A stretch of DNA of 64,000 nucleotides from Escherichia coli. GTDB taxonomy: Bacteria; Pseudomonadota; Gammaproteobacteria; Enterobacterales; Enterobacteriaceae. A program made the position numbers and the translations under genes. Location of the stretch: the NCBI RefSeq assembly GCF_003334355.1, contig NZ_QOWP01000004.1. The stretch is one strand, 5' to 3'. Shown here one piece after another: positions 3,362-32,208 of this stretch. Each line of letters starts with the position of its first letter. Position 1 is the stretch's first letter. Under the pieces are notes generated by a model. That model saw only the letters and a program-made list of their open reading frames with translations, searched no databases and was not told the DNA's origin.

Positions 3362-3477
3362 GGACATCTCCTGTCAATGCAATCCGGGTATGGTAACCCT
3401 CATTCCGTGAAGTGATAAGTGAGAGTGTCTGAATTCCTGCGCCTTTGCTCACAATCCAGACAGTTTCGCGACAATTA

Positions 3478-4029
3478 TCAGAAATAAGTTACAAACGGCG
3501 TCGGGTCCGGGACGTTAATCGACGTAGATGCTTTCAGCTGCGGCGTACCGAGGTAGAGAAAACCGACAATTTTATCCTGCTCACGGCAACCGAATGCTTC
3601 ACGCACTACCGGACTTTCAGTTAATGCGCCACTGCGCCAGATGCCGCCAAACCCCTGGGCAACTGCTGCCATTTGCATCGCCATGACCGCGCATCCGGCA
3701 GACATTTCCTGTTCCCAGCGCGGGACTTTATGATTCTCTTCGCATTTCGCCACCACCGTGATGATGAGCGGTGCGCGGAACGGCGCATTACGGGCTTTGT
3801 CGATAGCTTTGTCATCACTACCGGCAGCAATCGCCCCCTGTTCCAGTACGGCGCTGAAACGCTCGCGCCCTTCCCCTTCAATCACAAAAAAATGCCACGG
3901 TTGCATGGACTTATGGTCCGGCGCACGCATACCCGCACGCAGGATGTTTTGCAGTTGTTCACCCGTTGGCGCGGGTTCAGCCAAGCGGGAGGCGCTACGG
4001 CGATTGATCAATAGTTCGAGTGCATCCAT
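3478..4029 (-). CDS. ydjA: Nitroreductase-family protein YdjA
   Basis: 183 aa ORF matching YdjA length and sequence. Confidence 0.92.
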
Positions 4030-4189
4030 TTGATTAACTCCTGTCGTGATATTTATTCACAAAATTAACACGAGAGTGGATTTTGTTACAGCACAGTCCG
4101 CAATTCCTGCTGACAAGTACCGGTTGGGTCATTACGATAACCACATCTATTGCGCCTGTGACAGGTGTGACCTTAAGTTGGGAGAATAC

Positions 4190-28927: not shown

Positions 28928-29431
28928 ATGACTGAAATGGCTAAAGGAAGCGTGACGCATCAGCGGTTAATCGCTTTATTATCACAAGAAGGTGCTAACT
29001 TCCGCGTCGTTACCCATGAAGCGGTAGGTAAATGTGAAGCGGTGTCAGAAATTCGTGGCACCGCTTTAGGCCAGGGAGCTAAGGCACTGGTATGTAAAGT
29101 CAAAGGCAATGGCGTAAATCAACATGTTCTGGCGATCCTCGCAGCCGATCAACAGGCCGATCTGAGCCAACTCGCCAGCCATATAGGCGGATTACGCGCT
29201 TCGTTGGCCAGCCCGGCGGAAGTCGATGAACTCACAGGCTGTGTCTTCGGCGCGATCCCCCCTTTCAGCTTCCATCCAAAACTCAAACTGGTTGCCGACC
29301 CTCTACTCTTCGAACGATTTGATGAAATCGCCTTCAATGCAGGTATGCTGGATAAATCCGTTATTTTGAAAACCGCGGATTATTTGCGCATTGCGCAACC
29401 AGAACTGGTCAATTTCCGCCGCACTGCGTAA
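28928..29431 (+). CDS. yeaK: YbaK/ProX-family aminoacyl-tRNA deacylase-like protein YeaK
   Basis: 167 aa ORF matching YeaK. Confidence 0.9.
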   Translation: MTEMAKGSVTHQRLIALLSQEGANFRVVTHEAVGKCEAVSEIRGTALGQGAKALVCKVKGNGVNQHVLAILAADQQADLSQLASHIGGLRASLASPAEVDELTGCVFGAIPPFSFHPKLKLVADPLLFERFDEIAFNAGMLDKSVILKTADYLRIAQPELVNFRRTA

Positions 29432-29536
29432 CTAGCCTGTCCGTTCAATAAGCAGAACGGACAAAACCAGCACAACAGCAATGGCAAAAAACGATGACGT
29501 GATAATCAGTGTCTCGACGAACATTTGATCGTTCAT
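29432..29536 (-). CDS. yoaI: Small membrane protein YoaI (34 aa)
   Basis: Minus-strand ATG at 29536; translation [34 protein letters not shown]; below the ORF-track size cutoff. Confidence 0.7.
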
Positions 29537-29705
29537 AGCATGCCCCCGGGAGATAGCTGTTTTCACGTTATTGTTAGCGTGCACAAATGGCAGTTTGATG
29601 ACAGTTCGCCTGATTTTTTATGCAAAAAACGTAAAGATTTTCTACTTCCTTCCTGCAGCAAGCGTAAAGTAAGCAGGCTTATTATTTTTTGGCAAGGAAA
29701 CCACG

Positions 29706-30152
29706 ATGTTTGATGTCACTTTGCTGATCCTGCTCGGGTTAGCTGCGCTGGGCTTTATCAGTCATAACACCACTGTCGCCGTTTCAATTCTGGTGTTGAT
29801 CATTGTCCGCGTCACACCGTTAAGCACCTTTTTCCCGTGGATTGAAAAACAGGGGCTAAGTATCGGGATAATCATTCTGACGATTGGCGTTATGGCCCCC
29901 ATCGCCAGCGGGACGCTACCGCCCTCAACCTTGATTCACTCGTTTCTGAACTGGAAATCGCTGGTGGCAATTGCAGTAGGCGTTATTGTCTCCTGGCTGG
30001 GTGGGCGCGGCGTGACGTTAATGGGCAGCCAGCCGCAACTGGTTGCTGGGCTGCTGGTGGGCACTGTTTTAGGCGTAGCGCTGTTTCGCGGCGTACCGGT
30101 TGGCCCGCTTATTGCCGCGGGTCTGGTTTCGCTGATTGTGGGGAAACAGTAG
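29706..30152 (+). CDS. yeaL: UPF0756 inner-membrane protein YeaL
   Basis: 148 aa hydrophobic ORF. Confidence 0.9.
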
Positions 30153-30930
30153 TTAATCCCGCAATATATCGGCCTGGCGTTTGCCCCAGGCCTTTCTTAA
30201 ACATAGTAATAAAGGCCGTTGTTGAATCATACCCCAGCGTATGAGCAACTTTCTGTACAGTATCGCCTTTCACTAATCCCTGAAGCGCCATAATCAGCTG
30301 TAACTGCTGTCGCCACTGGCGAAAACTCAACCCCGTCTCTTTTACTATCAGTCGGGCAAGATTGCGTTCACTCATCGCAAAAAAGCCAGCCCATTGCCCC
30401 AATGACCCCCACTCGACGGGCTCTTTCGCCATCATCTCCACCATCGCGCGGATTTTAGGATGAGAAGAAACGGGTAGGTGCAGCTGTTGTTGTGGCTGCT
30501 GAGGGAGTTCATCAAACAGGACATGAATTAATCTGCGGGTCATCGGCTCAGCACGCTGAGTCGTCGTCCTGTTTGCCAGAGTTAAAATTAATTCCCGGCA
30601 TAAGGGCGATATTTTCAATGTGCAACAGGTTGTCGGCATTGTCACTGCGCTGGGTTCGATAAACAGAAAACAGAGTTCAGCGTTAGCTGTCACTTGATTG
30701 CTATGTTCCACCCCGCCCGGTATCCAAACCGCATATTGTGGCGGCACCATCCACAAAGCATTTTCCACCGTACAGGTAATTGCACCATGTAATGCCAGTA
30801 TCAGCTGTCCTTTGCGGTGCTGATGTACAGGACTGGTTAACTCATCCGTTCCGGCGTGAATACAAAATGCGACCGCGGCTTCATGGTGTCGGTCGGGTTC
30901 ATAGCCATTGAGATTCAACCTGTGCATCAT
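30109..30930 (-). CDS. yeaM: AraC-family transcriptional regulator YeaM (NimR)
   Basis: 273 aa; cupin-like N-terminus and C-terminal AraC helix-turn-helix; divergent from yeaN. Confidence 0.9.
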
Positions 30931-31026
30931 TTTGTCCGAATTTAGCGATAATTTGTCATTTTAGCTTGATTCAACATAACTATAAAAACGGTAAGGTACA
31001 GCCTCGTTTGTAACAATGAGAAGCAT

Positions 31027-32208
31027 ATGACCTGTTCAACTTCATTAAGCGGCAAAAACAGGATTGTCCTTATCGCTGGCATTCTGATGATTGCCACAAC
31101 ATTACGCGTCACCTTTACCGGCGCAGCACCGTTACTGGATACGATTCGTTCCGCTTACTCGCTGACGACAGCGCAAACCGGCTTATTGACCACCCTGCCA
31201 TTATTGGCCTTTGCGCTAATCTCACCTTTGGCCGCCCCGGTAGCGCGACGTTTTGGTATGGAACGTAGCCTGTTTGCCGCGTTACTTTTGATCTGTGCTG
31301 GTATCGCAATTCGCTCTCTCCCTTCGCCTTACTTATTATTTGGCGGTACAGCGGTCATTGGCGGTGGGATTGCATTAGGCAATGTCTTACTGCCAGGATT
31401 AATTAAACGCGATTTCCCTCATTCCGTCGCCAGACTTACCGGCGCATATTCCCTGACAATGGGAGCTGCGGCGGCACTTGGATCGGCTATGGTCGTGCCG
31501 CTGGCTTTGAACGGTTTTGGCTGGCAAGGCGCGTTGCTCATGCTGATGTGTTTTCCTCTGCTGGCTCTTTTTTTATGGCTGCCACAGTGGCGAAGCCAAC
31601 AACATGCAAATTTGAGTACCTCGCGCGCCTTACATACTCGGGGTATCTGGCGTTCGCCGCTTGCCTGGCAGGTCACATTGTTTCTTGGGATCAACTCACT
31701 GGTCTATTACGTGATTATTGGCTGGCTTCCGGCGATCCTCATCAGTCACGGCTATAGCGAAGCACAGGCGGGTTCACTGCATGGTTTGCTGCAACTAGCC
31801 ACAGCAGCTCCCGGTTTGCTGATCCCTCTTTTCTTACATCATGTGAAAGATCAGCGTGGTATTGCAGCGTTCGTTGCCTTGATGTGCGCAGTGGGCGCTG
31901 TTGGGCTCTGCTTTATGCCAGCGCACGCGATCACCTGGACTCTGCTTTTCGGCTTTGGTTCCGGCGCAACAATGATACTGGGGTTGACGTTCATTGGTCT
32001 TCGGGCAAGTTCTGCGCATCAGGCGGCGGCACTCTCGGGGATGGCACAATCCGTCGGGTATTTGTTGGCAGCCTGTGGGCCGCCGCTGATGGGTAAAATA
32101 CACGATGCTAACGGTAACTGGTCTGTACCACTTATGGGTGTTGCCATACTTTCACTACTGATGGCGATTTTCGGACTTTGCGCCGGGAGAGACAAAGAAA
32201 TTCGCTAA
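31027..32208 (+). CDS. yeaN: MFS transporter YeaN (NimT)
   Basis: 393 aa ORF with 12-TM MFS architecture. Confidence 0.9.
   Translation: MTCSTSLSGKNRIVLIAGILMIATTLRVTFTGAAPLLDTIRSAYSLTTAQTGLLTTLPLLAFALISPLAAPVARRFGMERSLFAALLLICAGIAIRSLPSPYLLFGGTAVIGGGIALGNVLLPGLIKRDFPHSVARLTGAYSLTMGAAAALGSAMVVPLALNGFGWQGALLMLMCFPLLALFLWLPQWRSQQHANLSTSRALHTRGIWRSPLAWQVTLFLGINSLVYYVIIGWLPAILISHGYSEAQAGSLHGLLQLATAAPGLLIPLFLHHVKDQRGIAAFVALMCAVGAVGLCFMPAHAITWTLLFGFGSGATMILGLTFIGLRASSAHQAAALSGMAQSVGYLLAACGPPLMGKIHDANGNWSVPLMGVAILSLLMAIFGLCAGRDKEIR

Follow-up and report, generated by a model that had tools for sequence, protein, structure and literature searches.

Why do the coding sequences of yeaL and nimR, which run towards each other in Escherichia coli, share their last 44 bp, and does this overlap reflect an error in one of the stop codons, a regulatory coupling of the two genes or the drift of a stop codon into a neighbouring gene? 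The question was addressed in a stretch of 64,000 nucleotides from contig NZ_QOWP01000004.1 (assembly GCF_003334355.1), referred to as the window, to which all positions apply unless K-12 coordinates are named. In a preliminary description of this DNA, the overlap was taken to leave no room for separate terminators and to imply transcriptional interference or antisense coupling, unless one of the stops was mis-assigned. The gene names, the coordinates and the 44-bp overlap of the 3' ends given there agree with the list of open reading frames and with the RefSeq records of E. coli ATCC 8739 and K-12 MG1655. The overlap as such is already known, as it is present in the reference annotation and the pair figures in a published catalogue of transcription units that overlap.

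Two coding sequences with a shared end

The junction comprises the following features, as given by the list of open reading frames and RefSeq:

29706..30152, plus strand: yeaL coding sequence, 148 aa, DUF441 inner-membrane protein, stop TAG at 30150-30152
30109..30930, minus strand: nimR (old name yeaM) coding sequence, 273 aa, stop TAA read from TTA at 30109-30111
30109..30152, both strands: stretch shared by yeaL and nimR, 44 bp

The genes lie on opposite strands and meet with their 3' ends, yeaL ending at 30152 on the plus strand and nimR at 30109 on the minus strand. Read on the plus strand, the shared stretch begins with two bases that complete the YeaL L135 codon and goes on with codons 136-148 and the TAG; on the minus strand, two bases completing the NimR T260 codon are followed by codons 261-273 and the TAA. 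From the coordinates of both stops, yeaL codon positions 1, 2 and 3 stand opposite nimR positions 1, 3 and 2. In prokaryotes, no phase is commoner than this one (123:132) among convergent overlaps of at least 5 nt, of which it accounts for 49% (Lillo and Krakauer 2007; PMC2174442). The 3' end of yeaL reads ...CTG ATT GTG GGG AAA CAG TAG. Across the coding open reading frames of the window, the antisense frame of this phase meets a stop every ~19 codons, and the probability that at least 14 codons stay open in a convergent gene in this phase is ~0.47. The overlap's length is not beyond chance.

The identical 44-bp overlap of yeaL and nimR is found in the RefSeq annotation of E. coli ATCC 8739 and of K-12 MG1655 (K-12 coordinates: yeaL 1874352..1874798; nimR complement 1874755..1875576). 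Positions 29600-31000 of the window are 100% identical to ATCC 8739 over the stretch tested. Of 5,426 complete E. coli genomes, 5,408 contain a 56-nt stretch spanning the overlap with at least 95% identity, and 3,426 carry it unchanged. Among the matches listed, both genes are annotated across this stretch in every full-length match, and the single partial match, in strain H82, carries nimR only.

Both open reading frames are genuine protein-coding genes, as indicated by their domain matches, by the RefSeq annotation and by the experimental study of NimR (PMC5934670). In YeaL, the Pfam domain DUF441 extends over residues 7-145 of 148 (E = 3e-44) and covers the entire model (1-139/139). Its last transmembrane segment is strongly conserved and is part of the domain, and the length of the yeaL open reading frame and the position of its stop are unchanged in 82 of 82 loci. 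The part of YeaL encoded inside the overlap thus belongs partly to a conserved domain. NimR combines the C-terminal double helix-turn-helix and the N-terminal cupin-type domain of AraC/XylS-family regulators, with Pfam matches to HTH_18 (residues 180-255, E = 2.5e-18), HTH_AraC (224-256), AraC_binding (22-142) and Cupin_2 (30-91). It was described as a 273-aa single-target regulator with a regulon of nimR and nimT (PMC5934670), and its RefSeq product name designates it as a repressor of its own operon. The region coding for the DNA-binding domain stops short of yeaL:

30166..30393, minus strand: coding region of the NimR HTH_18 DNA-binding domain (residues 180-255), ending 14 nt outside the overlap

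The NimR domain ends 17-18 residues ahead of the stop codon. Nearly all NCBIfam matches of the AraC family in NimR end at residues 252-258, and two weak ones (Rsp and Ada) extend to 262-264. An AlphaFold2 model for which 28 orthologues were used (mean pLDDT 85.6) has its last helix at residues 252-260 and a pLDDT below 50 for residues 263-273. The part of NimR inside the overlap is a tail outside the Pfam helix-turn-helix domain, which according to this model would consist of two residues of the last helix and a disordered stretch. Just outside the overlap, the two reference strains differ at NimR residue 258, the surrounding sequence being IAGLTT in ATCC 8739 and IARLTT in K-12; this difference appears to be another sign of a relaxed C-terminus.

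A mis-assigned stop, which the preliminary description had allowed for, is excluded by these data, given that domain homology fixes both reading frames to or near their stops and that the curated records agree. The description had further held that 3' end mapping in which one gene terminates upstream of the overlap would reveal a mis-called stop. This mixes transcript 3' ends with stop codons, as a transcript ending upstream would be a non-stop mRNA.

The nimR stop codon in related genomes

Related loci were collected by scanning one genome per species with YeaL as query, which yielded 80 loci within the Enterobacteriaceae. In 46 of these 80 genomes nimR is convergent, collinear, in the register of E. 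coli and essentially without a spacer. The stop positions were tabulated in 47 rows, in which the reference loci of ATCC 8739 and K-12 are included. The overlap amounts to 17 bp in 28 of these collinear rows, to 44 bp in 15, to 20 bp in three and to -4 in one. The 17-bp form occurs in Klebsiella, Enterobacter, Raoultella, Kluyvera, Leclercia, Lelliottia and others, the 44-bp form in the two E. coli reference loci and many Citrobacter, and the 20-bp form in the Citrobacter amalonaticus group. Loci in other registers, from Salmonella subspecies, Trabulsiella, Cedecea and Buttiauxella, have overlaps of 21, 6, 0, -1 and -5 bp. The DNA is collinear between the loci; the nimR stop alone shifts and the yeaL stop is constant.

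A nimR stop in this phase needs TTA, CTA or TCA over yeaL codon positions 2 and 3 and position 1 of the next codon. The position of the nimR stop varies by lineage because it depends only on which yeaL codons spell TAA or TGA in antisense. Most genera have TTT or CTT followed by ATT GGG in yeaL (Phe/Leu144-Ile145), which creates the TTA read as TAA in nimR, 17 bp into yeaL. The codon patterns that give the 17-bp stop in most genera can be written as xTT or xTC followed by ATx, that is, Phe, Leu or Ile and then Ile145. In E. coli, yeaL reads ATT GTG (Ile144-Val145) at this place, and the resulting TTG is the antisense of CAA, the codon of Gln265 in NimR. Translation of E. coli NimR continues past Q265 for 9 codons up to the TTA contributed by CTT-ATT of yeaL (L135-I136). 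Two features describe this difference:

30136..30138, minus strand: NimR codon Q265 (CAA; TTG on the plus strand), site of a TAA or TGA stop in 28 of 47 collinear loci
30112..30138, minus strand: 9-residue NimR extension QSAKPDPRQ (residues 265-273), present in E. coli and some Citrobacter, absent from most orthologues

The change can be traced to a single position. The base in question is the G at 30138, with which yeaL codon V145 (GTG) begins; an A in its place, giving an Ile or Met codon, restores the nimR stop. The Citrobacter freundii group shares with E. coli a Val codon (GTN) at position 145, where most genera have Ile (ATT or ATC). In C. amalonaticus, a synonymous change of CTG to CTT at Leu143 of yeaL places the nimR stop at 20 bp. 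Conservative (Ile/Val) or silent changes in yeaL thus lengthen or shorten NimR, and a NimR length of 264 in one species and 273 residues in another is not to be mistaken for a frameshift.

By parsimony over the genera, rather than from a reconstructed tree, the 17-bp overlap would be ancestral and the 44-bp overlap derived. Val145 may instead go back to the ancestor of the Escherichia-Citrobacter-Salmonella group and have reverted in places. Within Escherichia and Citrobacter, the 17-bp overlap is present in the 'E. coli' E69 lineage and in C. youngae ATCC 29220; a search for this allele of the strain E69 type among complete E. coli genomes found none closer than 92.5%.

Column entropies, computed over the collinear loci for each codon position, indicate which of the two proteins shapes the sequence. 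Downstream of the yeaL stop the values at nimR positions 1, 2 and 3 are 0.46, 0.29 and 1.24, which is the periodicity of nimR. Within the 27-nt extension, yeaL positions 1, 2 and 3 have entropies of 0.40, 0.00 and 1.31, the periodicity of yeaL, so that the most variable sites of the extension are those at which yeaL position 3 coincides with nimR position 2. In the 17-nt core of the overlap, the yeaL wobble entropy is 0.60, at 5 sites only, versus 1.1-1.3 elsewhere; this low value could reflect some dual constraint, including that on the nimR stop. The alignment of NimR orthologues is conserved through GQTPGRY and ragged thereafter, and within the 44-bp group the NimR tail varies at most positions with the YeaL sequence unchanged there. 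The NimR extension changes as fast as the synonymous sites of yeaL and is predicted to be disordered; it is without detectable constraint. Such a pattern appears to be the signature of a neutral read-on as opposed to a selected dual-coding segment. For annotators this means that no function should be read into the C-terminal tail of NimR, which is unconserved.

Transcript ends around the overlap

Two elements near the junction are candidates for ending the transcripts:

30171..30201, plus strand: hairpin GGCCTGG-CGTTTGCC-CCAGGCC (30171-30192) followed by TTTCTTAAA, inside nimR, 19 nt past the yeaL stop
29975..30108, minus strand: C-rich, G-poor untranslated RNA past the nimR stop, antisense of the yeaL 3' half, candidate Rho loading region

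The hairpin at 30171-30192 has 7 pairs (6 of them G-C), an 8-nt loop and the tail TTTCTTAA, which is the stem-loop and U-tract arrangement of an intrinsic terminator. Its folding energy is -12.7 to -14.1 kcal/mol, and 30171-30201 on the plus strand is the sole terminator-like site on either strand within 29300-31300. The preliminary description had argued that there is no room for separate terminators. Convergent genes, however, have their terminators within the coding sequence of the partner, as a rho-independent terminator is predicted for at least one gene in 21 of 58 convergent overlaps of E. coli (PMC2174442), and here a terminator-like hairpin with a T-tract stands 19 nt past the yeaL stop. 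The hairpin is the antisense of the nimR codons for the end of the conserved AraC-type domain (motif KGLGQTPGR): the Lys-Lys codons give rise to the T-tract, and the Gly-Leu-Gly and Pro-Gly-Arg codons to the two arms. The likely role of this hairpin and T-tract, judged from sequence features, is that of a yeaL terminator which is partly a by-product of the protein motif. Like the rho-independent terminators described within convergent neighbours (PMC2174442), it has a GC-rich stem and a T-rich tail and lies wholly in codons of the partner gene. It differs from them in that it is largely dictated by the KGLGQTPGR motif, and its existence may be partly incidental.

Stems of 7-9 pairs are present in nearly all Escherichia and Citrobacter loci, the exceptions being two Citrobacter loci (L012 and L015), and the stem is weaker and often broken in other genera. 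Over 41 distinct sequences, 77.7% of the stem cells pair, two pairs are broken in about half of the sequences, and the one compensatory pair is confounded by phylogeny. When nimR was recoded synonymously in 5,000 trials, the energy of the native hairpin was reached in 4.4%. It is possible that the codon choice of nimR is mildly biased towards the hairpin and that the embedded terminator is under some selection, in which case that part of the overlap would not be purely passive. A bidirectional terminator was considered and rejected: the minus-strand tail, GATATATT, is without a U-tract, and the hairpin lies inside translated nimR. In a search of 29000-31500 for structured RNAs in Rfam, only two sub-threshold matches were obtained (JUMPstart, E = 0.21; permuted tmRNA, E = 0.89), both taken as chance.

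For nimR, standard and relaxed scans of the minus strand from its stop to yoaI revealed no hairpin with a U-tract. The RNA downstream of nimR contains 38-41% C and 20-27% G in 78-nt windows starting at 30108-30030, that is, over the first ~130 nt. Since this C-rich and G-poor composition fits a Rho loading site, termination of nimR is most likely Rho-dependent.

The preliminary description was right in that the transcripts must be antisense to each other. Both stop codons have to be transcribed for the proteins to be made, so the full-length mRNAs of yeaL and nimR must both span the shared stretch, with complementarity over 44 nt or more; should the hairpin be the yeaL terminator, this would extend to ~90 nt or more (window ~30109 to ~30200). 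In 58 RNA-seq samples of MG1655 analysed with ExcludonFinder, 165 convergent pairs had overlapping transcription in at least half of the samples, and yeaL-nimR is listed as one of them (PMC12288877). This listing is not evidence of regulation, because its criterion is overlap of coverage, which results from any overlap of coding sequences. The pair resembles the excludons of the MG1655 core set of ExcludonFinder in being listed as convergent and in having transcripts that must overlap. It differs from classical excludons, which are long overlaps of untranslated regions, in that the overlap of yeaL and nimR is one of coding sequences forced by geometry. The outcome that defines an excludon is mutually exclusive expression by interference or RNase III, and the relation of yeaL and nimR is known here from geometry and coverage. 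Regulatory coupling by interference or antisense control is not needed to explain the overlap.

The literature searched contained no expression experiment on reciprocal regulation of yeaL and nimR. Likewise, no 3' end of either gene was seen in the supplements of Adams et al. (2021; PMC7815308), searched by gene names and K-12 positions 18743xx-18748xx, or in those of TERMITe (PMC12207403); these tables may be incomplete, and the two genes are weakly expressed. Supplementary file 2 of Adams et al. (PMC7815308) does contain a plus-strand position labelled 'antisense yoaI' at window ~29579 (K-12 1874225), between yeaK and yeaL, which may be the 3' end of a yeaK read-through upstream of yeaL. Other regulatory inputs around yeaL are on record. 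A PhoB ChIP-seq site lies in the divergent intergenic region of yoaI and yeaL (window ~29537..29705; K-12 1874218), and yoaI is strongly activated by PhoB; in the same data set, the RNA level of yeaL was low, with 36 versus 67 normalised counts and no significant change (PMC10294691). The yeaL mRNA has also been reported to be a target repressed by the sRNA UhpU (PMC12704781).

Origin of the overlap and neighbouring junctions

Loss or disruption of a stop codon is the standard origin of convergent overlaps (Palleja et al. 2008; PMC2478687). We consider it very probable that the tail-to-tail overlap of yeaL and nimR is real, joins two genuine genes and arose passively, by drift of the nimR stop codon. 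One base change, from Ile to Val at yeaL codon 145, would have removed an older nimR stop, whereupon the reading of nimR would have run 9 codons further into the antisense of yeaL to give the 44 bp. The yeaL transcript would end at the hairpin and T-tract at 30171-30201 inside nimR. The nimR transcript lacks an intrinsic terminator; Rho probably stops it within the C-rich RNA antisense to yeaL, and head-on encounters of polymerases may help. The complementarity of the two mRNAs would then be a by-product.

In all essential respects the locus agrees with convergent overlaps ascribed to stop shifts (PMC2174442; PMC2478687). As in these, two established genes share their 3' ends in the phase (123:132), a point change removed a stop, the extension is unconserved, the overlaps of orthologues are shorter or missing, and a terminator-like element of one gene, here yeaL, is embedded in the coding sequence of the partner nimR. 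Orthologues with an upstream stop in the same register were found (28 of 47 at the position of Q265), and the extension is free of purifying selection in nimR, as seen from the entropies, the ragged alignment and the pLDDT below 50. What is particular to yeaL and nimR is that the causal base (first position of yeaL codon 145) and several independent stops can be read from relatives. The importance of the case is slight, since accounts of stop codons that move into a convergent neighbour go back to the early 2000s; the two surveys of such overlaps (Lillo and Krakauer 2007, PMC2174442; Palleja et al. 2008, PMC2478687) refer to work by Rogozin et al. (2002) and Fukuda et al. (2003). Its value lies in teaching, as the exact base that shifted the nimR stop is legible from related genomes.

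Errors are a frequent source of such annotations: 124 of 178 long convergent overlaps (>60 bp) proved to be 3'-end extensions caused by them (PMC2478687). A frameshift, a sequencing error or an over-extended reading frame could in the same way have produced a mis-called stop in two truly separate genes, and the unconserved last residues of NimR would fit such an artefact. This is nevertheless hardly credible here. The identity of the 56-nt stretch in 3,426 complete E. coli genomes excludes a sequencing error, the domain matches anchor the frames to within 3 (YeaL) and 17-18 (NimR) residues of the stops with no earlier in-frame stop, the orthologues of most other genera also overlap, by 17 bp, and 44 bp is below the 60-bp threshold flagged in the cited study. 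The near fixation of the 44-bp form in E. coli and its presence in many Citrobacter might instead suggest that the NimR tail or the longer overlap is functional, through protein stability, partner binding or genome compaction. But any neutral variant that is old enough is expected to become fixed within one species. Selected dual coding is highly unlikely in view of a tail that differs at most positions within the 44-bp group with YeaL unchanged, has its most variable sites at second codon positions of nimR, is predicted to be disordered and lies outside all AraC-family profiles, barring one or two residues in the two weak matches.

More weight has to be given to the idea that yeaL and nimR form a functional excludon, in which the overlap is kept since polymerase collision or RNase III cleavage of the duplex makes expression of the two genes mutually exclusive. 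Overlapping transcription is logically required at this locus and is listed in the convergent core excludome of MG1655 (PMC12288877), the convergent arrangement without spacer is kept across many genera, and head-on collisions at convergent genes have been studied (preprint 10.1101/2022.10.23.513370). The length of the overlap, however, is not conserved, and species without nimR have an unrelated permease gene overlapping yeaL or have yeaO next to it, which speaks against a specific partnership. Low yeaL RNA in one data set, together with the reported repression by NimR of its own operon, would leave small scope for strong interference, and the literature searched held no link of YeaL to nitroimidazole resistance. 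A functional excludon is thus unlikely but conceivable. It is quite unlikely that two such properties are combined, with the hairpin as a selected dual-purpose sequence serving both the protein motif and yeaL termination, and with yeaL and nimR as a true excludon by way of the forced duplex of at least 44 nt. If this were so, derepression of nimR, for example under nitroimidazole stress, would lower YeaL, or the reverse. Passive drift of the nimR stop remains our preferred explanation.

Junctions of similar compactness were observed nearby. The genes yeaK (plus strand, ending at 29431) and yoaI (minus strand, ending at 29432) are convergent with zero bases between their stops (window 28928..29536), and yeaO and yoaF are convergent with a spacer of ~21 nt. 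Both pairs are also in the core list of ExcludonFinder (PMC12288877). Three successive convergent junctions thus occur almost without spacer in a 6-kb stretch.

Several relatives have lost, altered or replaced nimR. The gene is absent from E. albertii (L008 1725..2616), E. whittamii and some further Escherichia spp. (L005-L007); in E. albertii nimR-nimT is missing and yeaO follows directly after yeaL. Escherichia sp. MOD1-EC7003 (L003 2473..2616) retains a nimR remnant, in which the first ~40 codons are fused to the last ~24. In Citrobacter koseri (L034 ~3450..4173), the nimR homologue matches over residues 17-176 only (55% identity) and has its C-terminal region displaced by 3 nt relative to the other loci; this homologue may be a pseudogene or a rearranged copy. 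In Phytobacter ursingii (L041 3430..4122, minus strand), nimR is absent and an unrelated convergent gene shares 18 bp with the 3' end of yeaL, in a phase other than that of nimR. The gene encodes a 230-aa amino-acid ABC transporter permease (TIGR01726 above cut-off), and Kosakonia loci look similar. The permease overlap in Phytobacter indicates that the 3' end of yeaL has repeatedly been overlapped by different neighbours.
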